The notes: generated from the sequence alone by a model not told the origin. Numbered from the stretch's first letter, positions 3,955 through 57,672 are shown. The stretch is DNA of 62,480 nucleotides from Vicinamibacterales bacterium (GCA_050742335.1 JBOGIR010000122.1:1-62480), one strand, 5' to 3'. Made by a program: numbers and translations.

Positions 3955-5292
3955 GTGATGTCTGCGACATCCTGTTCGTCCATTGATCGCGCGGAAGCGG
4001 CGAATCGATTTATCAGGACGCGCGAGCGTTCACGCCGGTTGTTCGACCTGCTCGCTCCGGACGCCTATTATTCGCAGCCGATTCTACTTCGGCATCCGAT
4101 CGCCTTTTACGAAGGGCATCTTTCGGCGTTCAGCTTCAACACGCTGATCAAGCGAGCACTCGGCGAGCCAGGAATCGATGCCGGCCTCGAGCGTCTGTTC
4201 GCGCGCGGCATCGATCCCGGGCAGGCCTCTGCATCGTCGGGAGGTCCGCAGTGGCCGGCGCGCGACGAGGTTCGTGCGTTTGTGGACGAGGCGGATCGGC
4301 GCGTGCTCGATGCGCTCCTTACGGCGTCGATCGAGCAGCCGGGTCATCCACTCCTCGATCGCGGGCAGGCGGTGCATGCCATTCTCGAGCACGAGGCGAT
4401 GCATCAGGAAACACTGCTGTACATGTGGCATCAGTTGCCCTACGATCAAAAGCGGCCCCCCGCAGGCATCCTGGTGAACACCGGAGGATCGCCTCCGCGC
4501 GCGGAGACGATCGACGTGCCGGCCGGCCGCACGACGGTTGGGGCGAGGAGCGGAGCAATCGCGTTCGGATGGGATAACGAGTTCGAAGCCGTCGACGTGG
4601 ACGTGGCGGCGTTTGCGATCGATCGGTACGACGTCACGAATGCCGCGTTTCTCGAGTTCGTCGAAACCGGCGGGTACCGCGATGCGCGATGGTGGACGCC
4701 GGACGGCTTTGCATGGCTCCGCGCTGACGGCATCGAGCACCCGCGGTTCTGGACTCAGCACGAGGGCCGATGGTGGTGGCGCGGGATGTTTCAGGCGTTC
4801 CCGCTTCCAGCCTCATGGCCGGTCTATGTCAGTCATGCCGAGGCCTCTGCGTACGCGCGCTGGCGCGGCCGGCGCCTGCCGACCGAGGCCGAGTACTGCC
4901 GGGCCGCGTTCGGCACACCAGCCGGCGTCGAGCTTTCGTATCCATGGGGTGACGACCCGCCTGACGGCGTCCGCGGCCACTTCGATTTCGCGGGATGGGA
5001 CCCGCAGCCAGTCGGCCAATATCCCGCAGGTCAGAGCGCATGGGGCGTCGATGACCTGCTCGGGAACGGGTGGGAGTGGACGTCGACGGTGTTTGCGCCC
5101 CTGCCCGGCTTCGCGCCGTTGCCGTCGTATCCCGAATACTCCGCGGACTTTTTCGACGGCCAGCACTACGTCATGAAAGGGGCATCATCGGCCACCGCGC
5201 GCGACCTGCTGCGCCCGAGCTTTCGCAACTGGTTCCGGCCGCACTATCCGTACGTGTATGCAGCATTCCGCTGCGTCTCGGAACGTGCATGA
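3955..5292 (+). CDS. egtB: ergothioneine biosynthesis sulfoxide synthase EgtB (DinB_2 + FGE-sulfatase domains)
   Basis: N-terminal DinB-like 'FYEGHLSAF...ILEHEAMHQETLLYMWHQL'. C-terminal FGE-like 'GNGWEWTSTVF...YVMKGASSATARDLLRPSFRNWF'. Starts 4 nt after the MFS stop, with AGGAGGA upstream. Confidence 0.85.
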   Translation: MMSATSCSSIDRAEAANRFIRTRERSRRLFDLLAPDAYYSQPILLRHPIAFYEGHLSAFSFNTLIKRALGEPGIDAGLERLFARGIDPGQASASSGGPQWPARDEVRAFVDEADRRVLDALLTASIEQPGHPLLDRGQAVHAILEHEAMHQETLLYMWHQLPYDQKRPPAGILVNTGGSPPRAETIDVPAGRTTVGARSGAIAFGWDNEFEAVDVDVAAFAIDRYDVTNAAFLEFVETGGYRDARWWTPDGFAWLRADGIEHPRFWTQHEGRWWWRGMFQAFPLPASWPVYVSHAEASAYARWRGRRLPTEAEYCRAAFGTPAGVELSYPWGDDPPDGVRGHFDFAGWDPQPVGQYPAGQSAWGVDDLLGNGWEWTSTVFAPLPGFAPLPSYPEYSADFFDGQHYVMKGASSATARDLLRPSFRNWFRPHYPYVYAAFRCVSERA

Positions 5293-6263
5293 GCGCTGAG
5301 GCGCGATCGGCGGCTGCCCACGCCATCACCGGTCGAGACGTCGAAGAGATTCACTACTATCTGGCCCAGTCTCCGCGGCAGCTTCCGTCGCGCCTGCTCT
5401 ACGACGTCCTCGGGTCGAGCCTCTTTGAAGCCATCTGCCTGCTGCCGTGGTACCACATCACACGTGCGGAGATGCGTCTCCTCGTCGAGCACGGCGCGGC
5501 GATCGGTCGGCGTGTCTCAGCGACCGAGCTCGTGGAACTGGGATGCGGCAACGGCCAGAAGCTTGAAGCGCTGATGCGCGCACTGGCGCCGACCAGGCCG
5601 GACGTGCACCTGATCGATGTGTCGCGGGAGGCGCTTGACCGAACGACGCAGGTACTGCGTGCCGTAGGTGCCACGCGCATTACCGCCGCTCAGGCCACGT
5701 ACGAGGACGGACTCATGCAGCTGCCCGCGGCGCCGCAACACGGGCGCCGTCTCATTCTGTTTCTCGGGTCGAACATCGGTAACTTCGATCCGCCAGCGGC
5801 ATCGGCTTTCATACATCTCACCCGAAGAGCGCTGCGCCCGCGAGATTGGCTGCTGCTCGGTGTCGATCTTGTGAAGCCCGAGCGCGACCTGACGCTGGCC
5901 TATGACGATCCGCTCGGTGTGACGGCTGCCTTCAACAAGAATCTGTTGTTGCGCCTCAACACAGAAGCCGGCGCCAACTTCGATCTGGACGGATTCCGCC
6001 ACGAGGTGCGCTGGAATCGGCACGCGTCGAGGATTGAGATGCACCTCGTGAGCCGGCGGCGCCACGACGTCGTCGTTCCCGGTCCCACCGGCCCGTTGGC
6101 GTTCACTCTCGAGCCGGGTGAGTCGATCTGGACCGAGAGCTCGTACAAGTACGAGCCCGACGGCGTGCGGGCGCTGATGGAATCCGGCGGTTTCGAGTTG
6201 CGTTCGCAGTGGATCGAGGACGAGGCACGGGTTCTGCTGTCGCTCTTCGAGGCGGTCACGTGA
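5289..6263 (+). CDS. egtD: L-histidine N-alpha-methyltransferase EgtD
   Basis: The ATG overlaps the egtB stop (ATGA). Shows 'LPSRLLYDVLGSSLFEAICLLPWYHITRAE', 'ELGCGNGQKL' and 'FLGSNIGNFDP', typical of EgtD. The track ORF 5070..6263 is an upstream extension of this frame that overlaps egtB. Confidence 0.85.
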   Translation: MSAEARSAAAHAITGRDVEEIHYYLAQSPRQLPSRLLYDVLGSSLFEAICLLPWYHITRAEMRLLVEHGAAIGRRVSATELVELGCGNGQKLEALMRALAPTRPDVHLIDVSREALDRTTQVLRAVGATRITAAQATYEDGLMQLPAAPQHGRRLILFLGSNIGNFDPPAASAFIHLTRRALRPRDWLLLGVDLVKPERDLTLAYDDPLGVTAAFNKNLLLRLNTEAGANFDLDGFRHEVRWNRHASRIEMHLVSRRRHDVVVPGPTGPLAFTLEPGESIWTESSYKYEPDGVRALMESGGFELRSQWIEDEARVLLSLFEAVT

Positions 6264-6520: not shown

Positions 6521-7453
6521 ATGATGACTCGTCTTCTGGATTGCACGATACTGCTGGCGGCGTGCCTGGCGATCGTGATGCTGATGCCGGCGCGCCCCGC
6601 CAGCCAGGCGCTGTATCCGCGCGACGCCCCCAAGCAGCCGGGCGCGCCGAGTTGGGCGCGCGAGCGCGCGACGCTCCCTCCCTTCACCCCGCCGCGCACG
6701 CCGGAGGGGACTCCGAACCTGCAGGGACGCTGGGGCGGGCCGGCCGGAGGCGATGACATCGAAGAACACGACTACGTGGACGTGAGCTCGCCGCCCGAGG
6801 AGACCTACATCTCCGACCCGCCGGGCGGGACGATTCCGTACCAGCCGTGGGCCAAGGCGGTGCAAGCCGAGCATCGAACCGGGCTGGCGCGGGGATGGCC
6901 CGGCGAAAAGGGGCGGCTCTATCCGGACCCGCAGACGTTCTGTCTCTACAGCGTCCCGCGCGCGACGTATCGCGGCGGCTTCGAGATCGTGCAGGTCCCC
7001 GGCTACGTGATGATGCTCTACAACTTTGGCCACTACTATCGCTTCATCCCGACCGACGGGCGTCCGCACGATGTCCCCGCGCACGTCAAGCTGTGGATGG
7101 GCCATTCGCGCGGTTCGTGGCAGGGCAACACGCTCGTGGTCGACGTGACCAATCTCAATGGCAAGAACTGGCTCGACCAGGTAGGAAACTTCTTCAGCGA
7201 GAACGCCCACGTCGTCGAGCGCTTCACGCTCGCCGACGCGGACACGATCGACTACGAGACGACGATCGACGATCCAACGGTCTTTACGAGGCCGTGGACG
7301 ATCCGGTTGCCGCTGCGACGTGCCCGCGGCGGCAGCGGCGATCGCTACGCGAACGAGACCTGGGAGAACGCGTGTCACGAAGGGAACCAGGCGACCGAGC
7401 ACAATCGCACGCTCGGGTTCAAATGGTTCAGGGGGGTCACGCCCCCGAAGTGA
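6521..7453 (+). CDS. secreted protein, uncharacterised paralog family (copy D1)
   Basis: Has a signal peptide and the family motifs 'RTPEGTPNLQGRW', 'IPYQPWA', 'IPTDGRPH', 'WMGHSRGSWQGNTLVVDVTNLNGKNWLD' and 'DDPTVFTRPWT'. Confidence 0.8.
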   Translation: MMTRLLDCTILLAACLAIVMLMPARPASQALYPRDAPKQPGAPSWARERATLPPFTPPRTPEGTPNLQGRWGGPAGGDDIEEHDYVDVSSPPEETYISDPPGGTIPYQPWAKAVQAEHRTGLARGWPGEKGRLYPDPQTFCLYSVPRATYRGGFEIVQVPGYVMMLYNFGHYYRFIPTDGRPHDVPAHVKLWMGHSRGSWQGNTLVVDVTNLNGKNWLDQVGNFFSENAHVVERFTLADADTIDYETTIDDPTVFTRPWTIRLPLRRARGGSGDRYANETWENACHEGNQATEHNRTLGFKWFRGVTPPK

Positions 7454-7510: not shown

Positions 7511-8323
7511 GTGAACCGATGGTCTGATGGATGGAGGATCGCGCTGGGTACGGTGGGACTCATCGTCGCGCTGGCGCCGGCGCCGCCAGCGGCGCAGGGC
7601 GCGGCGGGGACGACCTACACGCCGCCACGGACGCGGGACGGGCATCCGGATCTGCAAGGTGTGTGGCAGGTCCTCAATGCCGCCGCGTGGAACGTTGAGG
7701 ATCATGCGGCGCGGATCGGCGTGCCTGGCGGCTACGGCGTCGTCGACGGCGGCGCGATCCCCTATCAGCCGTGGGCGCTCGCCAGGAGGCAGGAGAATTT
7801 TGCGAATCGCGCGACGCTCGATCCCGAGACGAAGTGTTACCTCCCTGGGGTCCCTCGCATTACCTACATGCCGCATCCGTTTCGCATCGTGCAGCAGGCC
7901 AACCGGGTGACGATCCTGTACGAGTACCTACACGCGGTCCGCTACGTCTTCATGAACGGCAACCCGCATCCCGAAGGACCGATCGAGTGGTGGATGGGCG
8001 ACTCACGCGGCCGCTGGGAGGGCAACACGCTCGTCGTCGACGTGATCCACCTGAGCGACAGGACCTGGCTCGATCGCGCCGGCAATTTCCACAGCGAGGC
8101 GCTGCACGTGGTCGAGCGCTACACGCCGAGCGGTCCCGATCACATCCTGTATGAGGCGACGCTCGACGATCCGAAGGTGTTCACGCGTCCCTGGACGATG
8201 AGCATGACGCTCTATCGACGCCAGGGAAAGAACGGCGACCTCATGGACTCGGAATACGACTGTTATCCCGACCTGCTGGAGCAGGAGTGGGACAAGCCGG
8301 GTTCGACCTTCTTCGCACACTGA
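7511..8323 (+). CDS. secreted protein, uncharacterised paralog family (copy D2)
   Basis: GTG start after GGAGAGGAGG. Motifs 'RTRDGHPDLQGVW', 'IPYQPWA', 'CYLPGVPR', 'WMGDSRGRWEGNTLVVDVIHLSDRTWLD' and 'DDPKVFTRPWT'. Confidence 0.8.
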   Translation: MNRWSDGWRIALGTVGLIVALAPAPPAAQGAAGTTYTPPRTRDGHPDLQGVWQVLNAAAWNVEDHAARIGVPGGYGVVDGGAIPYQPWALARRQENFANRATLDPETKCYLPGVPRITYMPHPFRIVQQANRVTILYEYLHAVRYVFMNGNPHPEGPIEWWMGDSRGRWEGNTLVVDVIHLSDRTWLDRAGNFHSEALHVVERYTPSGPDHILYEATLDDPKVFTRPWTMSMTLYRRQGKNGDLMDSEYDCYPDLLEQEWDKPGSTFFAH

Positions 8324-9675: not shown

Positions 9676-11769
9676 CTACTTGAGGCCGCGTTCGATGAGC
9701 AGGGCGTCGGCCGAGGCGTCCCTGCCGCGGAACTCGCGATACATGGCGGCCGCCTCCCTGGTGCCCCCCCGAGACAACACCATGTCCCGGAAGCGCTGGC
9801 CGTTCTCGCGGGTCAATCCGCCACGCTCCTTGAACCAGTCGTAGGCGTCGGCGTCCAGCACCTGGCTCCAGAGGTATGAGTAGTAGCCCGCCGAGTAGGC
9901 CAGCATCCAGATGTGCTGGAAGTACCGTGTGCGGTACCGAGGCGGCACTTCGCGGACAGCCAGCCCGTGTTTTCGCAGGGCCGCTTCTTCGAATGCATCC
10001 ACGTCGGTGGGGATCGTGTCCGCGGTCAGCGCGTGCCATTCGAGATCGACAAACGACGCCGCGAGCTGTTCCGTGAGCGCATAGCCGCCGTTGAACAACC
10101 GGGCCCGATCGATCTTGTCCTTCAACGTGGCGGGCATCACGTCGCCAGTCCGGTAATGGCGGGCATAGTTCGCGAACACCGACGGTTCCATCGCCCAGTG
10201 CTCGTTGAACTGCGACGGCATCTCGACGAAATCGCGGGGCACACTGGTGCCGCTCAGCGACGGGTACCGGACATCCGAGAACAACCCGTGCATCGCATGG
10301 CCGAACTCATGAAACATCGTCCTCACCTGGTCGAGCGTGAGGAGCGCGGGGTTTCCGGCGGATGGCTTGGGGAAGTTGGCCACGTTGGTGACCACCGGCC
10401 TGGTCCCGAGCAGGTCTGACTGCACGCTCAGGGAATTCATCCATGCGCCGCCCTGTTTGCTGGGACGGGCGAAATAATCGAGGTACAGCAGGCCGAGCGC
10501 AGATCCGTCGGCGTGGGCGACGTCAAAGACGCGCACGTCCGGGTGATACGCCGGGATGTCCTGCCGCTCGCGGAACGTGATGCCATACAGCTTCGTCGCC
10601 GCGAAGAACACGCCATCACGAAGCACGCGGTCGAGCTCGAAGTACTGACGCACCTCGGACTCGTCGAGCGCGTAGTCCGCCCGGCGTACGATCTCCGCGT
10701 AATACTGCCAGTCCCACGGCTCGAGCGTTGCGCCGGGCAGATCCATCCGGAGCCTGACCTGCAGCCGTGCGGCCTCGTCGCGCGTGCGCGCGGTGGTCGC
10801 GGCGACCATCCCCCGCATCAGCGCCAGCGCGTTCTCCGGCGTCTTCGCCATCTGGTCATCAAGCGTGAACACCGCGTGCGTGGCGAAGCCCTGCAGCTGT
10901 GCACGGTCGGCGCGGAGCCGCGCCAGGCGGAGGGCCAGTGATGTCGTATCGTTCTCCCCGCTGGCGTTCCTGCTGGTCGAGGCCTTGAAGAGCCGTTCTC
11001 TCAGCGCGCGATTGCGGAGGTACGCCAGCGCCGGCTGCTGCGTCGTGTTCTGGAGCGGGAGGACCCACTGACCCTGGAGCCCCCGGGCCGCCGCCGCCGC
11101 TTCGGCCGCGGCGATGTCCTGCTCCGGCAGCCCGTCGAGCATCACCTTGTCGTCCACGACCACGGCGGCGGCATTCACCTCCGCGAGCACCTGCCGGCGG
11201 AAGGTGCTCACCAGCTGGGCGCGCTCCTGGTTGATGGCCCGCACCGAATCCTTGTCCGCGTCGGACAGCGCCGCGCCTGCGCGCACGAACGTCCGATAGC
11301 GCTCCTCGACGAGCCTGAGCTGCTCCGCGTCGAGTCCAAGCGTCTGCCGGCGGTCGTATATCGACTTCACGCGTGCGAACAACTCCGGGTTCAGATCGAT
11401 CGCGTCGCGCTGGGCCGCGAGCTTCGGGGAATACTCGGCGTCGATGGCCTGAATCGTGGCGTCGCTGTGCGCGCCGAGCAGGACGTTGAAGATGCGCTGC
11501 GTCTGGCGAAGCAGCGATCCCGATCGTTCCAGCGCTTCGAGGGTGTTGGCGAACGTCGGAGGCTGCGGCGCTGCTGCGATCTCCTGAACGTCGGCCAGTT
11601 CCTCCTTCATGCCCTGGTCGAATGCGGCACGAAAGTCGGCGCTGGCAATACGACTGAAGGGTGGCGCGCCATGCGGCAGCGGGCTGGGCTGCAGCAGCGG
11701 GTTGTCGCGCGCCGGCGGTTGCTGCGCAGCAGGATGGACGACAGGGAGCGCGCCGAGGATCAGAAGCAT
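9676..11769 (-). CDS. dcp: M3-family zinc metallopeptidase (peptidyl-dipeptidase Dcp / oligopeptidase A-like)
   Basis: Carries the HEFGH zinc motif ('MFHEFGHAMHGLF') and M3 length and architecture. The start is placed at the ATG giving 'MLLILGALPVVHPAAQQ'; the upstream part of the track ORF reads through a repeat. Confidence 0.85.
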   Translation of the reverse strand: MLLILGALPVVHPAAQQPPARDNPLLQPSPLPHGAPPFSRIASADFRAAFDQGMKEELADVQEIAAAPQPPTFANTLEALERSGSLLRQTQRIFNVLLGAHSDATIQAIDAEYSPKLAAQRDAIDLNPELFARVKSIYDRRQTLGLDAEQLRLVEERYRTFVRAGAALSDADKDSVRAINQERAQLVSTFRRQVLAEVNAAAVVVDDKVMLDGLPEQDIAAAEAAAAARGLQGQWVLPLQNTTQQPALAYLRNRALRERLFKASTSRNASGENDTTSLALRLARLRADRAQLQGFATHAVFTLDDQMAKTPENALALMRGMVAATTARTRDEAARLQVRLRMDLPGATLEPWDWQYYAEIVRRADYALDESEVRQYFELDRVLRDGVFFAATKLYGITFRERQDIPAYHPDVRVFDVAHADGSALGLLYLDYFARPSKQGGAWMNSLSVQSDLLGTRPVVTNVANFPKPSAGNPALLTLDQVRTMFHEFGHAMHGLFSDVRYPSLSGTSVPRDFVEMPSQFNEHWAMEPSVFANYARHYRTGDVMPATLKDKIDRARLFNGGYALTEQLAASFVDLEWHALTADTIPTDVDAFEEAALRKHGLAVREVPPRYRTRYFQHIWMLAYSAGYYSYLWSQVLDADAYDWFKERGGLTRENGQRFRDMVLSRGGTREAAAMYREFRGRDASADALLIERGLK

Positions 11770-11802
11770 GAACACCGCCGTTCTACCGCGTCTCAGCAGG
11801 CT

Positions 11803-11829
11803 GTGGCGAAACTCACCAAGGCGCCACGG
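11803..11829. repeat. half-copy (flank only) of the CACAGAGG-hairpin element
   Basis: GTGGCGAAACTCACCAAGGCGCCACGG matches the flank of the full element at 12881. Confidence 0.6.
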
Positions 11830-11833
11830 GCTG

Positions 11834-12841
11834 TTAGGGCTGCCGCGCGTAGCGGTAGCCCCCCGACACGTGAATTTCGACGACGTGGGTCGCCGGACCG
11901 TTGCCGTCGACGATGAATTGGTAGCCCAGCCCGCTTTCGAACAGCGTCTGGCTGCGTGGCACCAGCCGCTGCAGCTCGCCGCCGCCACTTGTGACGAACA
12001 ACCGGCCGTCCGAGAGCGATATCCGCGCCGTCCGCGGGTTCCCCTGATAGATCCCGCTATAAACGCCGGCGTACCGGGCCAGCACCTCAGGCGGCACGTG
12101 GACCGCCGTCTCCGTCGTGCGGGCGCTCCAGTGGTCGCTGCTGCGCTCGCACACCAACTCGAGCATCTCCGTATCGGCCGCCAGCGTCTTTTCCACCGTA
12201 TAGCTCCAGGGCTTCGCGTACGCGCCCGGATCGGTGACGGTCACTTCGATCTCCAGGTGGCCGAAGTCCCGGCGGCGGTAGCGCTCCCGCATCCGCAGCG
12301 CCTCGGTATGCGACAACCCGCGCCGGCTCACCCACGTCTTGTCGTTGAAGCCGACGCTGTCGACGACGAGCGTGTCACCGTCCCAGCGGCCCACCGAATA
12401 TCCCATCCAACTCGGAGCAGGGTTGGCTTCCAGCTCGCGACCGTCCATGAAGATCAGGCGATGGGTCAAGTCGTCGTTCAGGATGGCAATGGCGGTGGGT
12501 GTCTGGAGGACACGCTTCCAGCCCCCGAATTTCTCGGCCTCGGGCCCGTTCGGCAGACACCGGTACGCGGGACGCATCTTGAAGAACTCTTCCTGCTGCT
12601 GTCGGGCGAGGTCCCTGACCCCCGGCTTCATGTCGGTGGGGTCAGGCCGTGGCGCAGGATCTTCGCCGTTCCAGATCCCCGACAGATCCGGCTTGTCGTC
12701 GGGTCCGCGCGGCGCCGGCGCCATCAGGTTCGGCTTGCCATCGGCCGTGCGCGGGATGCCGGGCCAGGGACGATCCAGCCACTGAGCCGCCGCGGGCATC
12801 GTGCCTGCCACGAGAACAAGTGTCGCCAGAAACAGCTTCAT
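11834..12841 (-). CDS. secreted paralog-family protein with DUF3471-like C-terminal domain (array copy A1)
   Basis: The start gives 'MKLFLATLVLVAGTMPAAAQWLDRPWPGIPRTADGKPNL'. Shows 'WMGYSVGRWDGDTLVVDSVGFNDKTWV' and a C-terminal 'LARYAGVYSG...LVPRSQTLFE...QFIVDGNG'. Confidence 0.85.
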   Translation of the reverse strand: MKLFLATLVLVAGTMPAAAQWLDRPWPGIPRTADGKPNLMAPAPRGPDDKPDLSGIWNGEDPAPRPDPTDMKPGVRDLARQQQEEFFKMRPAYRCLPNGPEAEKFGGWKRVLQTPTAIAILNDDLTHRLIFMDGRELEANPAPSWMGYSVGRWDGDTLVVDSVGFNDKTWVSRRGLSHTEALRMRERYRRRDFGHLEIEVTVTDPGAYAKPWSYTVEKTLAADTEMLELVCERSSDHWSARTTETAVHVPPEVLARYAGVYSGIYQGNPRTARISLSDGRLFVTSGGGELQRLVPRSQTLFESGLGYQFIVDGNGPATHVVEIHVSGGYRYARQP

Positions 12842-12880
12842 ACGCCTCTCCGATTGTGTCGCCGTGTCGGTTAACAGGCT

Positions 12881-12997
12881 ATGGTGAAACTCACCAAGGC
12901 GCCACGGAGACACAGAGACACGGAGTCTTTTCCAGATGTTTTCTCTGTGCCTCTGTGCCTCTGTGCCTCTGTGGCCCTGCCGGGACTTGTGCCACGG
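12881..12997. repeat. CACAGAGG-type hairpin element (full copy, inverted orientation)
   Basis: Arms are GCGCCACGGAGACACAGAGACACGGAG and CTCTGTGCCTCTGTGCCTCTGTGCCTCTGTGGCCC around a T-rich loop. Fills the gap between A2 and A1. Confidence 0.85.
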
Positions 12998-13001
12998 GTT
13001 G

Positions 13002-14038
13002 TTAACGCTCCCGTGCGTACCGATAGGGGCCCGAGATGTGAACCTCCACGAGGGCGGTCGCGGCACCCGTACCGTCGACGATGAATTGATAGCCGAGTCC
13101 CAGCCCTTCGAACAGCGTCTGCGATTGCGGCACCAGCGGCCGCATCTCGCCGCCGTCGACGGCGGCGGAGCCGATCACTCTGGCGATCAGCTGGCCGCCT
13201 GAGAGCGAGACTTCGACGGTCCGCGGGCGTACCCCGTAGAACCCGCGGTAGACGCCAACGTACCGTGCCAACACGTCGGACGGAACGGTCACCGCCCTGC
13301 CTGCGGCATCCGAGAGGCTGCCGGCCCAGTGATCGCTGCTGCGTTCGCAGACGGCCTCGAGCATCTCTGTGTCGGGGGCCAGCGCCATGTTCGCCGTGAA
13401 TCCCCAGGGCTTCACGTACGCACTCGGATCGGTGTACGTGACCTCGATCTGCAGGTGGCCGACGTCCGTGCGGCGGTATCGCTCCGTCACCCGCAGCGCC
13501 TCCGTGTGCGCCTGCCCGTAGCGGCTCAGCCACGTCTTGTCGTTGAAGCCGTTGCTCTCGACGACGAGCGTGTCGCCCTCCCAGCGGCCCACGGAGTACC
13601 CATCCAGCTCGGCGCGGGCTCGGCCTCGAGCGCGCGGCCGTCCATGTGGATCAGGCGGTAGGTGAGGTCATCGCTCAGGATCGCGACGGCGGCCGGCGTC
13701 TGGAGGATGCGCTTCCATCCGCTGAATTCGTCAGCCTCGGGACCGCTCGGCCGGCACTGAAACGAGGGACGCCCTCTGTGGTACTCGCGTTGACGCTGAC
13801 GGACGAGGTCGTTGACCCACGGCTTCGCGTTGGCGGGGTCGAGGGGGGCCTCGGGATTCGGCCCGTTCCATATCCCCGTCAAGTCAGGCCTGCCGTCGGG
13901 CCCGCGCGGCGCCGGCGCCGTCAGGTTCGGCTTGCCGTCGGCCGTGCGCGGAATGCCTGACCAGGGGCGATCCAGCCATTGGGCCGCCGCCGGTATCGTG
14001 CAGGCCGCGAACATGATCGCCATGAGCAACAGCCTCAT
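13002..14038 (-). pseudogene. array copy A2, interrupted by a 1-nt deletion (two track ORFs 13002..13592 and 13526..14071)
   Basis: The N-terminal ORF ends its homology at '...APSWMG' and the C-terminal ORF resumes at 'GRWEGDTLVVESNGFNDKTWL'. At 13596-13605 the plus strand reads GTACCCATCC where paralogs read GTACCCCATCC. Confidence 0.75.
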
Positions 14039-14050
14039 AGGCCCCCTCCA

Positions 14051-14094
14051 ATTCGTGATTTGAAGCCGCAAATCATAAATCGCAAATCACGAAT
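14051..14094. repeat. hairpin ATTCGTGATTTG...CAAATCACGAAT built from AAATCNCN-type tandem units
   Basis: 12-bp perfect inverted repeat inside a low-GC tandem tract (aaatcataaatcgcaaatcacgaatcacaaatcgc). Lies between A3 and A2. Confidence 0.75.
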
Positions 14095-14117
14095 CACAAA
14101 TCGCATGATTCATCAGG

Positions 14118-15155
14118 TCACCGCTGCCGAGAAAACCGCCAAGGGCCTGATATGTGAATCTCGTCGACGCCGGTCGCGACGCCTTTGTCGTCGACGATGA
14201 ATCGATAGCCGAGTCCCAATCCATCGAACAGCGTCTCGGATTGCGGTACCAGCGGTCGAGACTCGTCGCCAGCGATGGTGCCGCCGACGACGATCTTGGC
14301 GATCAATTGGCTGCCAGAGAGCGATACTTCCACGGAGCGCCAGGTTTGCCCCCAAAAGCCATTGTAGACACCGACGTACCGCGCCAGCACGTCGGGCGCC
14401 ACGGTCACCGCCGAGTTGGCGGCATCCGAGACACTGCCGGGCCAGTGCTCGCTGCTGCGTTCGCAGACCGCCTCGAGCATCTCCGTGTCGGGCATCAGCG
14501 TCATGTTCGCCGTGATTCCCCACGGCTTCACGTACGCACCCGGATCGGTAAACGTGACGTCGATCTGCAGGTGGCCGAAGTCAGTACGCCGGAAGCGCTC
14601 CGTCACGCGCAGCGCCTCCGTGTGCGCCCGTCCGTCGGCGCTCAGCCACGTCTTGTCGTTGTAGCCGTTGCTCTCCACGACCAGCGTGTCGCCGTCCCAG
14701 CGACCCACGGAGTACCCCATCCAGCTCGGCGCGGGGTCGGCCTCCAGCACGCGGCCGTCCAGGTGGATCACACGGTGGGTGAGGTTGTCGTTCAGGATCG
14801 CCAGGGCGGCCGGTGTCTGGAGGATGCGCTTCCACCCGGCCCACCTGTCGGCCTCAGGTCCGCTCGGCCGGCACTGGAAGGACGGGCGCGCCCTGAAGTA
14901 GTCCCGGTGATGCCGTTGGACAAGGTCGTTGACCCACGGTTGTGCGTTGGCGGCGTCGTAGGCGGGGCGGGGAACCGGTCCGTTCCATATCCCCGTCAAG
15001 TCAGGCTTGCCGTCGGGTCCGCGCGGCGCCGGCGCCATCAGGTTCGGCTTGCCATCGGCCGTGCGCGGGATGCCGGCCCAGGGGCGATCCAGCCATTGGG
15101 CCGCCGCCGGCATCGTTCCGGCCGCGAGGATGAGCGCCGTGAGAAACAGCCTCAT
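14118..15155 (-). CDS. secreted paralog-family protein with DUF3471-like C-terminal domain (array copy A3)
   Basis: Shows 'MRLFLTALILAAGTMPAAAQWLDRPWAGIPRTADGKPNL', 'WMGYSVGRWDGDTLVVESNGYNDKTWL' and C-terminal 'LARYVGVYNG...LVPQSETLFD'. Confidence 0.9.
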   Translation of the reverse strand: MRLFLTALILAAGTMPAAAQWLDRPWAGIPRTADGKPNLMAPAPRGPDGKPDLTGIWNGPVPRPAYDAANAQPWVNDLVQRHHRDYFRARPSFQCRPSGPEADRWAGWKRILQTPAALAILNDNLTHRVIHLDGRVLEADPAPSWMGYSVGRWDGDTLVVESNGYNDKTWLSADGRAHTEALRVTERFRRTDFGHLQIDVTFTDPGAYVKPWGITANMTLMPDTEMLEAVCERSSEHWPGSVSDAANSAVTVAPDVLARYVGVYNGFWGQTWRSVEVSLSGSQLIAKIVVGGTIAGDESRPLVPQSETLFDGLGLGYRFIVDDKGVATGVDEIHISGPWRFSRQR

Positions 15156-15192
15156 AGCCCCTCCGTTTCTGCCTACTTGGTCCGTCTAACCA

Positions 15193-15236
15193 CCTTCGCC
15201 AAGGCTACGGTGGTCCGCCGTAGCTTTAGCGAAGGC
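15193..15236. terminator. imperfect 17-bp hairpin between A4 and A3
   Basis: CTTCGCCAAGGCTACGG-tggtccg-CCGTAGCTTTAGCGAAG, about 20 nt after the A4 stop on the coding strand. Confidence 0.45.
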
Positions 15237-15255
15237 GGAGCCGGACGCTACGTAC

Positions 15256-16299
15256 TCAACGCTGCCGCGCGAAGCGGTACGGTCCCGTGATGTTGATCTG
15301 CACGACGTCCGTCGCGATGCCTTTGTCGTCGACGATGAACTCGTAGTACAGGCCCGCGCCCTCGAAGAGCCTCTCCGACTGCGGCACCAGCGGCCGGATT
15401 TCGCCGCCGTCGACAAGGGCGCCGCCGATCACCCTGGCGATCAACTGGCCGCCCGAGAGCGTCACTTCGACGGTGCGCGCTCTCGACAGGTAGTTCCCGC
15501 TGTAGACGCCGACGTACCGCGCCAGCACCTCAGGAGGCACGGTCACCGCCCGGCTCGCGGCTTCCGAACGCGTGCCGGTCCAGTGATCGCTGCTGCGCTC
15601 GCAGATGGCTTCGAGCACTTCCGTGTCGGGCGCGAGCGCCATGTTCGCCGTGAATCCCCACGGCTTCGCGTAGGCACGCGGATCGGTGTACGTCACCTGG
15701 ATCTGCAGGTGGCCGAAGTCGGTGCGCCGATAGCGCTCGGTCACGCGCAGCGCTTCGGTGTGCGCCTGCCCGTAGCGGCTCAGCCACGTCTTGTCGTTGT
15801 AGCCGTTGCTCTCCACGACGAGCGTGTCGCCCTCCCAGCGGCCCACGGCGTACCCCATCCAGCTCGGCGCGGGCTCGGCTTCGAGCGCGCGGCCGTCCAT
15901 GTGGATCGTGCGATAGGTCTGATCGTCGTTCAGGATCGCGATGGCCGCCGGCGTCTGGAGGATGCGCTTCCACCCGGCAAACCGGTCGGACTCGGGCCCG
16001 CTCGGCAGACACTGGTACGACGGACGGTCCTTGTGGTAGTCGCGCTGCCGCTGGAGGACGAGGTCATGGACCCACGGCAGCTCGATGGTTGGGTCGGGAA
16101 GCGACTCGGGATTCGGCCCGTTCCACACGCCGGTGAGATCCGGCTTGCCGTCGGGTCCGCGCGGCGCGGGCGCGGTGAGGTTCGGTTTTCCATCAGTCGT
16201 GCGGGGAATGCCCGGCCAGGGACGATCCAGCCATTGGGCCGCCGCGGGCGTCGTGCCCACGACGAGGGCGAGCGCGGCGAGACACAACCTCATACACAC
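15256..16299 (-). CDS. secreted paralog-family protein with DUF3471-like C-terminal domain (array copy A4)
   Basis: Shows 'MRLCLAALALVVGTTPAAAQWLDRPWPGIPRTTDGKPNL' and 'WMGYAVGRWEGDTLVVESNGYNDKTWL'. The start may be 16293 instead. Confidence 0.9.
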   Translation of the reverse strand: MCMRLCLAALALVVGTTPAAAQWLDRPWPGIPRTTDGKPNLTAPAPRGPDGKPDLTGVWNGPNPESLPDPTIELPWVHDLVLQRQRDYHKDRPSYQCLPSGPESDRFAGWKRILQTPAAIAILNDDQTYRTIHMDGRALEAEPAPSWMGYAVGRWEGDTLVVESNGYNDKTWLSRYGQAHTEALRVTERYRRTDFGHLQIQVTYTDPRAYAKPWGFTANMALAPDTEVLEAICERSSDHWTGTRSEAASRAVTVPPEVLARYVGVYSGNYLSRARTVEVTLSGGQLIARVIGGALVDGGEIRPLVPQSERLFEGAGLYYEFIVDDKGIATDVVQINITGPYRFARQR

Positions 16300-16308
16300 C
16301 TTTCGACG

Positions 16309-17334
16309 CTACTTCTTGCGTGCGAACCGGAATGAGCCCGATATGTGAATCTCCACGAGCTCGGTCGCGGTTCCGCTATCGTCGACGACGAATTGATAGC
16401 CCAGCCCGATCCCTTCGAACAGCGTCTGCGTTTCCGGCACGAGCGGCCGTATCTCGCCTCCGTCGAGGAACGCAAAGCCAATGACCCTGGCGATCAACTG
16501 ACCGCCTGACAGCGACACTTCGATAGTACGGGGGCGTGTCCCATAGGCCCCGACATAGGTGCCGACATACCGGGCCAGCACCTCGGGTGGGACGGCCACC
16601 GGCGTGTCCAAACGGACCGACCAGTGGTCGGTGCCGCGCTCGCAGACGGATTCGAGCATCTCCGTATCGGCCGCCAGCGTCTTCTCCACCGTGAAGCCCC
16701 ACGGCCGCGCGTACGCACCCGGATCGCTGAAGGTGACTTCGATCTGCAGGTGGCCGAAGTCCGTGCGGCGGTAGCGCTCCGTCGCGCGCAGCGCCTCGGT
16801 ATGCGCCAGCCCTTCGGGGGTCAGCCAGGTCTTGTCGTTGAACCCGTTGCTCTCCACGACGAGCGTGTCGCCCTCCCAGCGCCCGACGGAGTAGCCCTGC
16901 CAGCTTGGCGCGGGATCGGCCTCCAGCTCACGGCCGTCCATGTGGATCACGCGATACGTGAGGTCATCGTCCAGGATGACGAGAGTGGCAGGCGTCTGCA
17001 GGATGCGCTTCCACCCGCCGAATTCGTCAGCCTCGAGCCCGCTCGGCCGGCACTGAAAGGAGGGACGCCCCCGATGGTAGTCCTGGTCACGTTGACGCAC
17101 GAGGTCGTTGACCCACGGCTGCGCGTTGGCCGGGTCGAGGAGGGGATCGGGAGTCGGCCCGTTCCAGATCCCCGTCAAATCGGGCTTGCCGTCGGGACCG
17201 CGCGGCGCGGGCGCGGTCAGGTTCGACTTCCCATCAGCCGTGCGCGGAATGCCCGCCCACGGACGATCCAGCCACTGGGCCGCGGCGGGGGTCGTGACCG
17301 CGACGAGCGCGAGTGCCGTGAGAAACAGCTTCAC
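16309..17334 (-). CDS. secreted paralog-family protein with DUF3471-like C-terminal domain (array copy A5)
   Basis: Shows 'MKLFLTALALVAVTTPAAAQWLDRPWAGIPRTADGKSNL' and 'WQGYSVGRWEGDTLVVESNGFNDKTWL'. Lies 9 nt upstream of A4. Confidence 0.9.
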   Translation of the reverse strand: MKLFLTALALVAVTTPAAAQWLDRPWAGIPRTADGKSNLTAPAPRGPDGKPDLTGIWNGPTPDPLLDPANAQPWVNDLVRQRDQDYHRGRPSFQCRPSGLEADEFGGWKRILQTPATLVILDDDLTYRVIHMDGRELEADPAPSWQGYSVGRWEGDTLVVESNGFNDKTWLTPEGLAHTEALRATERYRRTDFGHLQIEVTFSDPGAYARPWGFTVEKTLAADTEMLESVCERGTDHWSVRLDTPVAVPPEVLARYVGTYVGAYGTRPRTIEVSLSGGQLIARVIGFAFLDGGEIRPLVPETQTLFEGIGLGYQFVVDDSGTATELVEIHISGSFRFARKK

Positions 17335-17338
17335 ACCG

Positions 17339-18397
17339 TCACTTCACGCGCGCGTATCTGTAGGGACCGGAGATGTGAATCACGATGAGGGCCGTTGCCG
17401 GGCCCTTGTCGCCGACCTCGAACTGATAGCCGAGCCCCAGGCCTTCGAACACCGTCTGGGAAATCGGCACCAGCGGCCGCGGCGTGCCGTCCTCGAGGCC
17501 GGCGGCGCCGAGGCCCCCCTCGATGGCCGGGCCGACGATCGTGGCAACCAGCTCGTTGCCGGAGAGCGACACTTCGTACGTCCGCTCGCGTCCGCCATAG
17601 ATCCCTTTGTAGACGCCGACGTACCGGGCGAGCTGGTCGCGCGGCACGCTCACCCTCGCGCTAGCGGCATCCGAGAGGCTGCCCCAGTGCTCGCTGCTGC
17701 GTTCGCAGACCGCCTCGAGCATTTCCGTATCGGCGGTGAGCCTCATGGTCGCCTTGAAGCCCCACGGCTTCGTGTACGCGCGCGGGTCGGTGTAGGTGAC
17801 CTCCACCTGGAGACTGCCGAAGTTGGTACGCCGGTAGCGTTCGGTGATCCGCAGCGCATCCGAATGCGAGACCCCGTAGCGGCTCGTCCACACCTTCTCG
17901 TTGTATCCGTTGCTCTCCACGACGAGCGTGTCGCCTTCCCAGCGGCCCACCGAGTACCCGGTCCAGCTTGGCGCGGGCTCGGCTTCGAGCGTGCGGCCGT
18001 CCATGTGGATCACGCGATATGTCAGGTCGTCGTTCAGGAAGGCGATGACGGTCGGCGTCTGGAGGACGCGCTTCCAGCCGCCATACCGCTCCGCCTCGGG
18101 TCCGCTCGGCCGGCACTGGTAATAGGGACGCGAGCGGTGGTACTCCTGCTGATGCTTGCGGGCGAGATCCAGGACCCACGGCTGCAGGTCGGAGGGCTCC
18201 GGACGGCCGAGGATCTGTCCGGCGTTCCATATCCCCGTCAAATCCGGCTTGCCGTCGGGCCCGCGCGGCGCGGGCGCCGCCAGGTTCGGCTTGCCGTCGG
18301 GAGTCCGCGGGATGGCCGGCCATGGACGATCCAGCCATTGGGCCGCCGCGGGCATCGTGCCCGCGATCAGAACGAGTGCCGCGAGAAAGAGCGTCAT
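17339..18397 (-). CDS. secreted paralog-family protein with DUF3471-like C-terminal domain (array copy A6)
   Basis: The start gives 'MTLFLAALVLIAGTMPAAAQWLDRPWPAIPRTPDGKPNL'. Shows 'WTGYSVGRWEGDTLVVESNGYNEKVWT'. Lies 4 nt upstream of A5. Confidence 0.85.
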   Translation of the reverse strand: MTLFLAALVLIAGTMPAAAQWLDRPWPAIPRTPDGKPNLAAPAPRGPDGKPDLTGIWNAGQILGRPEPSDLQPWVLDLARKHQQEYHRSRPYYQCRPSGPEAERYGGWKRVLQTPTVIAFLNDDLTYRVIHMDGRTLEAEPAPSWTGYSVGRWEGDTLVVESNGYNEKVWTSRYGVSHSDALRITERYRRTNFGSLQVEVTYTDPRAYTKPWGFKATMRLTADTEMLEAVCERSSEHWGSLSDAASARVSVPRDQLARYVGVYKGIYGGRERTYEVSLSGNELVATIVGPAIEGGLGAAGLEDGTPRPLVPISQTVFEGLGLGYQFEVGDKGPATALIVIHISGPYRYARVK

Positions 18398-18481
18398 ATC
18401 CGTCCTCCAGCGTTGGGCGGGATCGTAACACGCCGGCACGGCGGCGGATGCTTGCTTGGATCCTTTCTTCGCGGCCTCGTG

Positions 18482-18574
18482 GATCGGCGGAGCGACGTGT
18501 GGGCGTTTGGGGCCGTGCTGTTCGAGATGTTGACGGGGCGGCGGGCATTCGGGGGAGACGACCTCTCCGACACG
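18482..18574 (+). pseudogene. 31-codon relic of a Ser/Thr protein kinase (subdomain IX only)
   Basis: Translates to DRRSDVWAFGAVLFEMLTGRRAFGGDDLSDT. Compare intact copies 'TRTDIWAFGCVLYEMLTGRRAFGGEGVTDT' (20134 gene) and 'RRADLWAFGVVVWEMLTGRRLFEGATVSDT' (59859 gene). No start and no other kinase subdomains are present. Confidence 0.7.
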
Positions 18575-18603
18575 GGCGGCCCTTGGCCTTCTTATTATGT
18601 CAA

Positions 18604-18645
18604 TCAAACATTATGTTTGACCGTCATCAAGATATTCTCGATACT
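18604..18645 (+). promoter_or_regulatory. AT-rich putative promoter with perfect palindrome TCAAACAT-t-ATGTTTGA overlapping a TTGACC -35 box
   Basis: Palindrome at 18604-18620. TTGACC at 18617-18622, a 17-nt spacer, then GATACT at 18640-18645. The ATG of the ATPase gene follows at 18657 with no obvious SD. Confidence 0.35.
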
Positions 18646-18656
18646 GCCGATCGAGC

Positions 18657-19922
18657 ATGGAGTTCGTCAACCGGGCGGCGGAGCTGCGCGAACTGGACGC
18701 GGCGGCCACGCGAGGTGGTCTGTTGGTGATGTTCGGCCGGCGGCGCGTCGGCAAGACGCGACTGCTCCGGCAGTGGCTGCACGCGCGCGACGGGCTCTAC
18801 AGCCAGACCATCGAGGCGCAGCGCGACCTGCAGATCCAACAGGTGTTCTCCGACCTCCGCCCGCAACTCGACACGCAGCTGGTTCCCAGGGCGTGGCCGG
18901 AACTCTTCGAAATCCTCGCGCTGCACAAGCGGCGCTGGGTGCTGTGCCTCGACGAGTTCCCCTACCTGACGGCGGTGGACTCGTCGCTGCCGAGCCAGTT
19001 GCTGAAGTGGCTGGACCATTCGCTTCCGCGCGGCTGCCTGGTCATCGTCACGGGCTCGAGCACGCGCATGATGAACGACCTGTTCCTCCACCGGGCGGCG
19101 CCGTTGTACGGCCGCGCGCGAAAGCTCCTGCATGTCCAGCCCATGGACTACGTCGCATTCTGCGCCGCCTGCGACCTTCGAGCCGCCGACCCGGATGCAT
19201 TCGAGACGTTCGCTTGTGTCGGCGGCATCCCGAAGTATTGGGAGTTCGTCGAAGCAGGGCAGGATGCCGTGGCGCTCGCCGAGTCGCTCTACTTCGATTA
19301 CGCGCCCTACATGGAGCAGGAGCCGCAGCGGATCCTGCGCGACGAAGGCGTCATCGGCCTGAACGCCGTCGCCGTGCTCGAGGCCGTGGGCCGAGGCGCG
19401 GAGCGACCGTCGGAAATCGCCGGCCGGCTCGGCACCGCGCAGACCAACCTGTCGCGACTGCTCCAGCAGCTGCTCGATGCCTCCATCCTGATCCGCGAGC
19501 TTCCATTCGGCGAGAGCGTGCGTTCGACGAGGAAGAGTCTCTACCGTATTCAGGATCCGGCCATGCGCTTCTGGTACCGGGTCTTCTCGCCACACCGGAG
19601 CCGCTGGCGCACCTACACGGCAACGGACAAGCGCTCGCTCATTCATGCTCACGCAGCGACCGTGTTCGAAGACGTGTGCCGCGCCCGCATTCCGGGCGCG
19701 CAGCGGTATTGGGAACGCCACGTCGAGTTGGACCTGGTCGCGCCCGACCCCGAAGACCGCCGGAGGTTGCTCGTGGCGGAAGTCAAATGGCGTCGCCTGA
19801 CCGTCGCGGAGCGAAGGCACGTGCTCCGTCAGCTCGAGAGCAAGTGGTCGCGCTGTTCCCTGCGCACACGCCACCCCAAGGTGCGCTTCGCCGTGCTCGA
19901 TGCCGGCGCCCTGAGCGGCTGA
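18657..19922 (+). CDS. ATP-binding protein, Arch_ATPase (AAA+) N-terminus with DUF234-like C-terminus
   Basis: Walker A 'GRRRVGKT', Walker B 'VLCLDEF', a wHTH-like 'PSEIAGRLGTAQTNLSRLLQQL' and a C-terminal 'ELDLVA...VAEVKW' nuclease-fold-like motif. Confidence 0.8.
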   Translation: MEFVNRAAELRELDAAATRGGLLVMFGRRRVGKTRLLRQWLHARDGLYSQTIEAQRDLQIQQVFSDLRPQLDTQLVPRAWPELFEILALHKRRWVLCLDEFPYLTAVDSSLPSQLLKWLDHSLPRGCLVIVTGSSTRMMNDLFLHRAAPLYGRARKLLHVQPMDYVAFCAACDLRAADPDAFETFACVGGIPKYWEFVEAGQDAVALAESLYFDYAPYMEQEPQRILRDEGVIGLNAVAVLEAVGRGAERPSEIAGRLGTAQTNLSRLLQQLLDASILIRELPFGESVRSTRKSLYRIQDPAMRFWYRVFSPHRSRWRTYTATDKRSLIHAHAATVFEDVCRARIPGAQRYWERHVELDLVAPDPEDRRRLLVAEVKWRRLTVAERRHVLRQLESKWSRCSLRTRHPKVRFAVLDAGALSG

Positions 19923-29142: not shown

Positions 29143-30048
29143 ATGGGAGTTCCGACAATGCCACATCCTGGTTGGGTTGTAATGGCCGTCCTTTTCGTTG
29201 CAACGCTGGGCCTCCCCGCTGAGACACTCGCCCAGGCGAATGCTTCGGGTGGCTGGTTGGTTCCGGAGTGGAACAAACCGCCGGTCACGGATGCGAACAG
29301 GAAGCCGGCGCCGCGGCGCAGCCTGGCCGGCACGTGGGGGCCGGCAGCGGGAGCGGGCGCAGGGACCCAGGCAAGTGGTGTGCAGTTGAAGCCGAACAAC
29401 GGCAGGCCGGAAAATCAACTTCCGTATACTCCCTACGGCCTGGAGCTGTACAAGTCCCACAAGGCGCTCGAGGGGATCGACGCGGTGCTGCCTTCCCAGG
29501 ACAACGATCCCAGAAATCGCTGCGAGCCGTTGGGAATGCCGCGCTACAACCACTACAACGTCAGGCTCACGCAGTTCTTTCAAGACGAGCACAAGATTGT
29601 GATCCTGTATCACTACGACAACCGCTGGCGCGTCATCTGGACCGACGGTCGCCAGCTTCCCACCTTGGTGGATGGCGGCGTCGCCATCGCCGGTGAAATC
29701 CGGGAGCCGCGGTTCTTCGGCTACTCGGTGGGCCGGTGGATAGACGACTACACGTTCCAGGTCCAGACGGTAGGCGCGATGCCGGAAGACCGCGTGTGGC
29801 TCGATTCGACGGGCCGGCCCATCAGCGACCAGGTCCGCGTCACCGAGACATTTCAGCGCGTGGACTATGACACGCTGGTGTGGTCGGAAACGATCGACGA
29901 TCCGAAGGTGTATGCCAGGCCGTGGGAGACCTTGAAACTCCCGATGCGCTTGCACGATCCCCGTACCGACATCCAGGAGTACTACTGCTCACCGGCCGAG
30001 CAGGAGAACTACAACAAGCTGTTCGGCAACACGGCGAGCGGCAAGTAG
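29143..30048 (+). CDS. secreted protein, uncharacterised paralog family (divergent copy B1)
   Basis: Shows 'LPYTPYG', 'RCEPLGMPR', 'WTDGRQL', 'FFGYSVGRWIDDYTFQVQTVG', 'RVWLDSTGRPISDQVRVTETFQR' and 'DDPKVYARPWE'. Confidence 0.8.
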   Translation: MGVPTMPHPGWVVMAVLFVATLGLPAETLAQANASGGWLVPEWNKPPVTDANRKPAPRRSLAGTWGPAAGAGAGTQASGVQLKPNNGRPENQLPYTPYGLELYKSHKALEGIDAVLPSQDNDPRNRCEPLGMPRYNHYNVRLTQFFQDEHKIVILYHYDNRWRVIWTDGRQLPTLVDGGVAIAGEIREPRFFGYSVGRWIDDYTFQVQTVGAMPEDRVWLDSTGRPISDQVRVTETFQRVDYDTLVWSETIDDPKVYARPWETLKLPMRLHDPRTDIQEYYCSPAEQENYNKLFGNTASGK

Positions 30049-33142: not shown

Positions 33143-33222
33143 GGGCCACAGAGACACAGAGGCACAGAGAACATCTTGAAAAACTCTGTGTCTCTGCGTC
33201 TCTGTGGCGCCTTGGTCGCTTG
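33143..33222. repeat. CACAGAGG-type hairpin element (full copy)
   Basis: GGGCCACAGAGACACAGAGGCACAGAG-aacatcttgaaaaa-CTCTGTGTCTCTGCGTCTCTGTGGCGCC. Confidence 0.85.
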
Positions 33223-39130: not shown

Positions 39131-39192
39131 GGAACACCGAGACACCGAGACACGCTAGTGGATTGGCCTCGGTGCCTCTGTGCCTCGGTGGT
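39131..39192. repeat. hairpin element, CACCGAG/CACAGAG variant
   Basis: AACACCGAGACACCGAGACACG-ctagtggattgg-CCTCGGTGCCTCTGTGCCTCGGTGG. Confidence 0.8.
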
Positions 39193-55015: not shown

Positions 55016-55090
55016 GGGCCACAGAGTCACAGAGACACGGAGGTCAACAAAAAAAGGATCTCCTTCGTGTCTCCGTGTCTCCGTGGCGCG
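55016..55090. repeat. CACAGAG-type hairpin element (full copy)
   Basis: GGGCCACAGAGTCACAGAGACACGGAGG-tcaacaaaaaaaggat-CTCCTTCGTGTCTCCGTGTCTCCGTGGCGCG. Confidence 0.85.
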
Positions 55091-55681: not shown

Positions 55682-55708
55682 GGGCCACAGAGGCACAGAG
55701 AAAACATC
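55682..55708. repeat. half-copy (left arm only) of the CACAGAGG hairpin element
   Basis: GGGCCACAGAGGCACAGAGAAAACATC with no right arm. Confidence 0.6.
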
Positions 55709-57570: not shown

Positions 57571-57672
57571 GTGGCACAAGTCCCGGCCGGGCCACAGAGG
57601 CACAGAGGCACAGAGAAACATCTAAAGAAAAACTCTGTGTCTGTGTCTCTCCGTGGCGCTTTGCTGACTTTC
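57571..57672. repeat. CACAGAGG-type hairpin element (full copy with long flank)
   Basis: GTGGCACAAGTCCCGGCCGGGCCACAGAGGCACAGAGGCACAGAG-aaacatctaaagaaaaa-CTCTGTGTCTGTGTCTCTCCGTGGCGC. The flank matches the reverse complement of the 12881 copy. Confidence 0.85.

Follow-up and report, generated by a model that had tools for sequence, protein, structure and literature searches.

A six-gene tandem array encoding putative exported two-barrel proteins in a Vicinamibacterales bacterium, with a constrained N-terminal segment

It is well known that bacteria widen their repertoire of binding or uptake by means of tandemly arrayed exported paralogues, and the phenomenon as such is ordinary. A close counterpart to the case presented here is provided by the lpl genes of Staphylococcus aureus, which are reported to be tandem exported paralogues with variable bodies and a conserved gene-end region that serves as the site of exchange (PMC2568036). 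Our subject is an array of six homologous genes, A1 to A6, arranged head-to-tail on the minus strand at positions 11834-18397 of a 62,480-nucleotide (nt) contig from a Vicinamibacterales bacterium, a soil acidobacterium (GCA_050742335.1, JBOGIR010000122.1:1-62480), the whole of which is called the window below. Set beside the lpl genes, the array is alike in combining a conserved region at one gene end with variable bodies and exchange between neighbours, and it differs in that its protein family is unrelated, a lipobox is missing, exchange is sporadic and the orthogroups are stable across genomes.

At the protein level, the C-terminal domain of the array proteins, referred to as the tail, finds its counterpart in the thioesterases SurE (6ksv) and Ulm16 (8fek) of the penicillin-binding protein (PBP) type, for which an eight-stranded antiparallel lipocalin-like C-terminal domain has been described (PMC11735501). 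With about 100 amino acids (aa) modelled as a helix and eight antiparallel strands, the tail resembles this domain as well as DUF3471 and the D-aminopeptidase DAP (1ei5), and the eight strands that mark the SurE and Ulm16 domain are all present in its predicted structure. DUF3471 is usually located C-terminal to a serine hydrolase domain of the beta-lactamase/PBP type. The difference lies in what precedes it, namely a PBP catalytic domain in the DUF3471 hydrolases and an unrelated all-beta core in the array proteins. That core, modelled as one strand and a meander of eight strands with short helices, recalls the calycin barrels (lipocalins, fatty-acid-binding proteins (FABPs) and avidins), and an invariant G-x-W is located at its first strand, as it is in the lipocalin signature, a resemblance that we treat as a lead rather than a test. 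It differs from calycin barrels in having no lipocalin, FABP or avidin match in Pfam, in template modelling (TM) scores of 0.3-0.5, in its many invariant polar residues, and in that about 35 aa of conserved, extended chain precede the barrel. Two successive beta-barrels within about 300-350 aa are also present in DUF3598 (2o62) and BFA1 (5yvf), which rank among the top full-length fold matches of the array protein but reach TM scores of only about 0.15-0.21 and share no sequence similarity with it.

As a whole, we lean towards a reading to which we give slightly better than even chances, in which an old tandem expansion produced exported two-barrel binding proteins that were diversified by duplication, while their N-terminus was held constant by constraint on the protein. 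Nothing categorically new is claimed by this, as it comprises a familiar evolutionary pattern, an uncharacterised and very large family, and a DUF3471-like barrel in an unusual context.

A lineage-specific tandem expansion under purifying selection

Calls of open reading frames (ORFs) and tblastn comparisons (E 1e-136 to 1e-168 between copies) bore out the six-gene, head-to-tail, minus-strand arrangement proposed from the sequence in an earlier note. Compared pairwise, the copies share 62-79% identity at the protein level and 72-82% at the DNA level. A6 (17339-18397, 352 aa) opens the array, followed by A5 (16309-17334, 341 aa), whose GTG start lies 4 nt past the A6 stop codon, A4 (15256-16293, 345 aa, with ATG at 16293 and an alternative GTG start at 16299), A3 (14118-15155, 345 aa), A2 (13002-14038, 345 aa after repair of the frameshift described below) and A1 (11834-12841, 335 aa), the most divergent of the six and the one with a shorter tail. 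The spacing given in the same note also held, with gaps of 4 nt for A6/A5, 100 nt for A4/A3, 79 nt for A3/A2 and 160 nt for A2/A1, and with 9 nt for A5/A4 if A4 starts at the GTG (15 nt from the ATG). In the NCBI annotation of this Vicinamibacterales metagenome-assembled genome (MAG), locus tags ACRD3C_05810 to 05840 cover the array; every copy is labelled "hypothetical protein", and A2 is entered as two proteins.

Four contigs, L001 to L004, served for comparison, L004 being a GTDB species representative. L002 and L003 originate from different samples, show no difference over the array and hold six genes, as does L004, while L001 holds four genes representing four of the six orthogroups. These orthogroups were delimited in a neighbour-joining tree, in which the A1 group branches first. 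One-to-one orthologues of the window copies are 79-94% identical at the amino acid level, against the 62-79% found among the window paralogues: 92% for A6 (L002_g1), 94% for A5 (L002_g2), 90% for A4, 87% and 88% for A3 (L002_g5 and L001_g2), and 82% and 79% for A1 (L002_g6 and L001_g4). Since independent assemblies hold one-to-one orthologues, the duplications are old and the array is not mis-assembled. Orthologous pairs show ratios of nonsynonymous to synonymous divergence (dN/dS) of 0.10-0.34 across all six copies. The array is a lineage-specific tandem expansion in which each copy has been kept as a separate orthologous line under purifying selection.

Gene order has not remained fixed in this process. 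The succession A4-A2-A3-A1 in L002 and L004 stands against A4-A3-A2-A1 in the window and L001, and this swap of the A2 and A3 orthogroups means that the array was rearranged internally. Comparison of the window with L001, L002 and L004 gave alignments in the array only, and the flanks share no similarity. In the neighbour-joining tree, A6 clusters with genes that other Vicinamibacterales and Gammaproteobacteria have as single copies, and the two-gene arrays of contigs L006 and L012 look intermediate. Successive duplications raised a single ancestral gene of the A6 type to six copies before the relatives sampled here split.

Predicted fold and proposed function

All six copies begin with a Sec-type signal consisting of a basic n-region, a hydrophobic core and an AxA motif, for example M-R-LFLTALILAAGTMP-AAA|QW, where residue 2 is R, K or T; a lipobox cysteine was found in none of the six when they were read from the sequence. 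AlphaFold models were made for A3, both full-length, with a predicted local distance difference test (pLDDT) score of 77.7, and for the core only, with a pLDDT of 81.7 and a predicted TM score (pTM) of 0.81. In these models, an N-terminal strap is extended and confidently placed (pLDDT 88-92 for aa 31-60); it is proline-rich and ends in an invariant GxW that opens the first strand. The core, about 190 aa long and with two invariant cysteines, is all-beta; a single strand and a set of eight are accompanied by two helices, and the linker that follows the core is disordered. The tail of A3 (aa 246-345; 14121-14420, minus strand) is modelled as one helix and then eight beta-strands (aa 262-343). 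Over 54 sequences, C95, C231, G55, W57, R128, W170 and D204-P205 are invariant.

The core has no Pfam, NCBIfam or PADLOC match in any copy, the approximately 225 aa in front of the tail have none in Pfam or NCBIfam, and searches of PDB sequences with A3, with the core profile and with the tail profile returned only noise. Its best Foldseek match is to a calycin-type barrel and is weak (E 4.9e-3, TM 0.35/0.52), and because its fold matches are weak, "calycin-like" is only a tentative label for the modelled core. An internal duplication relating core and tail was also considered and rejected, as the profile-profile comparison with hhalign gave a probability of 0.2% and therefore no detectable kinship between the two domains.

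The tail, with its pattern LARYxGxY ... LSGGxL ... LxP ... TxF, had initially been described as DUF3471-like and as a domain added in the array copies only. As regards its identity, the best score against DUF3471 (PF11954) is 19.6 bits, below the Pfam gathering threshold of 29.3 bits. The matches are, however, consistent: DUF3471 is the only family that recurs, in 23 of the 54 scanned members at E<=0.1 (best E 2e-4), with alignments spanning profile positions 3-85 of 103. Within the array, A1 (aa 245-318, sub-threshold), A2c, A4 and A5 match at E 1e-3 to 2e-2, and A3 and A6 do not match. The full-length A3 model, furthermore, has its best Foldseek matches in 1ei5, 8fek (E 2.7e-4) and 6ksv (E 3e-3), hydrolases that end in a beta-barrel (lipocalin-like) domain. 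A DUF3471 assignment is thus plausible despite the score. Pfam and NCBIfam scans showed no beta-lactamase or peptidase domain before the tail in any copy, and the array in this way displays a DUF3471-like barrel away from its usual hydrolase setting.

As regards the origin of the tail, the larger family has to be considered. When 1.84 billion cluster representatives were searched with a profile, 22,048 clusters (defined at 50% identity) passed an E-value limit of 1e-3 and 12,472 a limit of 1e-10. Some of the proteins contain two cores in one chain. The 62-kb window alone holds twelve family genes, the six array copies and six tail-less paralogues that are 23-35% identical to A3 (6521-7453, 7511-8323, 29143-30048, 30592-31446, 58581-59657 and 61098-62081, with two tandem pairs among them). 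Restriction of the tail to array copies is therefore true within the window, but Vicinamibacterales, Bryobacterales, Terriglobia and several Gammaproteobacteria also have tailed members, mostly one or two copies. Because tailed homologues occur as single copies in other lineages, including other orders of Acidobacteriota, the tail predates the array, and the idea that it was added together with the array has to be abandoned in view of this taxonomic spread and of the tree. A link between the tail and the doubled N-terminal motif was likewise examined and fails as a rule, since 64% of the tailed members have the doubled motif, but so do 24% of the tail-less ones. Some family members are fused to OmpA or CarboxypepD_reg domains and one to a cytochrome c domain, and these fusions point to the cell envelope, a location with which the invariant cysteines C95 and C231 agree. 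The family merits recording, as it is very large, common in soil Acidobacteriota and in some Gammaproteobacteria, has no sequence relative in Pfam, NCBIfam or the PDB, and bears no annotation beyond "hypothetical protein".

From these features we infer that the array proteins are exported two-barrel binders in which the variable loop and the tail diversify specificity. Exported to the cell envelope, they would act there as barrels binding small molecules or other ligands, on a fixed scaffold that would comprise the strap and the hairpin of aa 136-165. Specificity could be tuned by the tail barrel, the part with the highest dN/dS, together with the linker and the variable loop of aa 59-95, so that the array would supply a panel of related binders. 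With its clear orthologues, the array represents a natural experiment that separates scaffold (N-terminal strap and aa 136-165) from diversifying parts (aa 59-95 loop and tail), and this split can guide the definition of the family and the choice of targets for structural and ligand work.

Several observations weigh against this proposal. The signal peptide of the six copies was read by eye and not by a predictor. Fold matches of the core (UnaG, streptavidin, nitrophorins, LpqH, Tp0751) have E of at least 5e-3 and TM scores of 0.3-0.5. No conserved neighbour genes accompany the array in the window, L001, L002 and L004. Literature searches on DUF3471, DUF6152 and PF19649 found no publication, and no family member is known to have been characterised or connected with a ligand, partner or phenotype. 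Orthologues diverge by 12-30% in the 5' 200 nt as compared with 1-10% in nt 241-540, a pattern discussed in the next section. Finally, a series of invariant or nearly invariant residues (R128, D133, R135, H178, E180, E186, R187 and D204) would fit an enzyme or a metal site no less well than a passive binder.

The last point introduces a serious alternative, although we regard it as unlikely, namely that the proteins are enzymes or handlers of metals or cofactors, with a polar site inside the core barrel and with paralogues differing in substrate. In addition to the conserved polar residues, such a function would agree with the cytochrome c fusion of one superfamily member, with beta-barrel enzymes such as OlmO and CpeS among the weak fold matches, and with the genes adjoining the tail-less paralogues. 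There, DUF6152 is the only specific recurrent neighbour, adjoining family genes, mostly tail-less ones, in about 12 loci and often overlapping them; in the window, a DUF6152 gene (PF19649, E 5e-28) at 58119-58571 lies 9 nt upstream of the tail-less paralogue at 58581-59657. DUF6152 proteins have a signal ending in A-HH, hence a predicted His-His mature N-terminus, and an NPH motif in common, a pattern which suggests metal binding. The array itself, on the contrary, has neither DUF6152 nor a redox gene beside it, no catalytic family was matched, and H178 is lost in some distant paralogues. In a broader idea, which we consider doubtful, the core would define a large superfamily of cell-envelope proteins that traffic a metal, a cofactor or a small molecule, with tail-less members pairing with DUF6152 and the array proteins acting as specialised carriers, whose DUF3471-like barrel would be an additional binding module taken over from serine hydrolases. 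TonB-type outer-membrane barrels were found within 10 kb of family genes in 11 of about 80 loci; such genes are common in Acidobacteriota, and we estimate this proximity to be no more than expected.

Conservation of the N-terminal block

The segment most alike among the six proteins, the N-block, covers aa 21-58 in A3 (QWLDRPWAGIPRTADGKPNLMAPAPRGPDGKPDLTGIW; 14982-15095, minus strand) and the same positions in all other copies. Mean pairwise amino acid identity over A1-A6 is 0.67 in the signal peptide, 0.89 in the N-block, 0.50 in aa 59-95, 0.74 in aa 96-135, 0.85 in aa 136-165, 0.73 in aa 166-240 and 0.60 in the tail. The near-identical N-termini reported in the earlier note are thus present, but they do not form the sole conserved block, since aa 136-165 (EPAPSWMGYSVGRWEGDTLVVESNG) are 85% identical. 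The diverged bodies reported alongside them were overstated, as the core retains 73-74% identity outside the 50% loop of aa 59-95, with 60% in the tail.

That note had left two causes for the N-terminal pattern, gene conversion and constraint, and we find that each has acted, on a very different scale. Among the array paralogues, synonymous codon identity at conserved residues is 0.70 in the N-block and 0.65-0.73 in the core. N-block synonymous divergence (dS) between paralogues is 0.15-1.0, with 0.4-1.0 for most pairs, and the corresponding dN/dS of 0.05-0.24 compares with 0.21-0.45 in the core and 0.28-0.82, the highest values, in the tail. Most of the six distant window paralogues, at 23-35% identity to A3, retain the latter half of the block, PPRxPDGxP(D/N)LxGxW, as do most members of the superfamily. 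Over the 54 sequences, which include paralogues 30% identical, no change is seen at G55 and W57 and hardly any at P42, P44, R45, G49 and D52. Because synonymous divergence is ordinary, dN/dS is low and half of the motif is kept in distant paralogues, purifying selection at the protein level is the main cause of the N-terminal near-identity.

What the constraint serves could be understood in two ways. It is possible, if rather improbable in our estimation, that the N-block is a docking or targeting peptide outside the fold, used for an envelope partner, for export or for anchoring. Its constraint is the strongest in the protein, it is proline-rich and mostly devoid of regular secondary structure in the model, and its sequence repeats one motif in tandem, first as PRTxDGKPNL and then as PRGPDGKPDL. 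On the other hand, aa 31-60 are modelled with a pLDDT of 88-92 and the block runs into the first barrel strand with the invariant G55 and W57; this confident placement of the strap and the two invariant residues suggest packing against the domain. A conserved partner gene near the array is missing as well. In the reading preferred here, the strap would be part of the scaffold of a binding barrel.

A still less probable explanation dispenses with protein selection and assumes concerted evolution, that is, recurrent gene conversion of the 5' ends keeping the N-termini alike. Evidence of exchange does exist. A probable conversion tract of about 58 nt is located in A3 (15018-15075, minus strand), with A1 (12704-12761) as partner and with A2 (13901-13958) partly similar; over nt 81-138 of the coding sequence, A1 and A3 share derived states (ATC, GAT, the Met40 codon and GGA) that are absent from the orthologues of both. 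This agrees with the 59-nt stretch noticed initially as recurring in A1, A2 and A3, which is present in these copies only, with 0-1 mismatch. In a Sawyer-type run test, A1 and A3 show a run of 18 concordant polymorphic sites, with a pairwise p<0.0005 but a global p of 0.15, which is not significant. The nearest neighbours of the A3 N-block are A2 and A1 rather than the A3 orthologues. A6 and L004_g1 differ at 21 or more of 114 nt in the N-block, against only 3 of 114 in a window of the core. The greater divergence of orthologues at their 5' ends than in mid-core, mentioned above, is observed although no protein segment is more conserved than the N-block. Such a 5' pattern is suggestive of repeated exchange between paralogues, of unusual conservation of the mid-core DNA, or of both.

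Nevertheless, homogenisation on the scale required is not seen. Synonymous identity of the N-block between paralogues, at 0.65-0.70, is not above that of the core. Across the four genomes it amounts to 0.76 for orthologues, and for paralogues to 0.653 within the same genome and a similar 0.629 between different genomes; outside the N-block, same-genome and different-genome paralogues are equal. A dS of up to 0.4-1.0 in most pairs also speaks against recurrent conversion, and most of the paralogues whose sequences lie too far apart for conversion nevertheless keep the motif's second half. Over whole genes, paralogues are not closer to each other than to orthologues, the N-block of A1, A2 and A3 being the exception, and since each copy has one orthologue in other genomes, the genes as wholes have not been homogenised. 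We consider it probable that at least one short conversion took place between paralogues, involving A1 and A3 and partly A2, and further replacements of 5' ends may have occurred in relatives (L004_g1). Of the two causes first envisaged, constraint therefore applies to the block in general, and conversion is supported only for the tract of about 58 nt that A1 has in common with A3 and, in part, with A2.

One copy departs from the intact state. The first reading of the locus treated A2 as a whole gene and missed the loss of one nucleotide, by which A2 is split into two ORFs (13526-14038 and 13002-13592). According to the codon alignment and the raw sequence, one G is absent at 13599-13601 (minus strand) from the run in TGGATGGG(G)TAC, which reads GGG in A2 and GGGG in A3, A4, L002_g4 and L002_g5, the latter two being A2/A3 orthologues. 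The dN/dS of A2 against its orthologue is 0.25, similar to that of intact copies, and a relative that is 95% identical, P0018, is intact. Because of this ratio and this relative, the frameshift is either very recent or an artefact, that is, a homopolymer sequencing error. The MAG origin of the contig and the homopolymer frameshift of A2, possibly a sequencing error, might raise the suspicion that the entire array is a mis-assembly or an inflated repeat of the metagenome bin. This is effectively refuted by the 18-28% nt difference between copies, far too large for repeat collapse or inflation, and by two to three independent assemblies with the same orthogroups (all six arrayed in L002/L003 and L004, four in L001).

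Intergenic repeats and neighbouring genes

The three long gaps of the array (A2/A1, A3/A2 and A4/A3) had been described as containing hairpin repeats. Each of them does contain an inverted repeat, but the three sequences are unrelated and do not represent one repeat family, and only two of them fold strongly. The A2/A1 gap carries a long imperfect hairpin of CACAGAGG-type units (12894-12989; folding free energy, dG, -60.6, z -6.1 against shuffles), and the A4/A3 gap a palindrome with 24-nt arms that is unique in the window (15190-15238; dG -44.7, z -3.1). In the A3/A2 gap, A/T-rich GTGATTYG repeats with an inverted arm (14051-14094), also unique in the window, fold weakly (z -0.6) and abut the ribosome-binding site of A2. 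T-tracts are absent from the three gap repeats, a terminator scan of the three gaps gave no match, and an Rfam scan of 11600-18800 returned only spurious miRNA-hairpin matches on the long palindrome.

Units of the CACAGAGG type, often as inverted arms, have 16 matches in the window against 0.16 expected by chance, with the dispersed element located at 12903-12973, 33147-33206, 39168-39190, 55020-55042, 55686-55700 and 57593-57615; it looks like a repeat family of this genome resembling repetitive extragenic palindromic (REP) elements. The GTGATTYG-type element is also found before two array genes of L004 (8815-8910 and 11033-11137 of that contig) and is possibly a regulatory site. A further repeat is the 20-mer GTGGCGCCTTGGTGAGTTTC, located downstream of A1 (11808-11827, minus strand) and repeated exactly downstream of A2 (12886-12905). 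Its copies diverge just 3' of the repeat, where the A1 copy runs on to GCCAC and can form a small hairpin alone.

L002 and L001 have compact arrays, in which neighbouring genes lie -1 to 74 nt (L002) and 27-28 nt (L001) apart. Ancestrally, the array was probably a tight operon, and REP-like palindromes were later inserted into three of its gaps, and the inserted palindromes may modulate the relative expression of the copies in this genome.

Around the array, the divergently oriented neighbour of A6 (18657-19922) encodes an ATPase_2/DUF234 protein matching the PADLOC candidate defence model PDC-S27 (E 8e-33). Further away, adjacent genes at 3955-6263 encode one protein with FGE-sulfatase and DinB_2 domains and one with a Methyltransf_33 domain, presumably an EgtB/EgtD ergothioneine pair.

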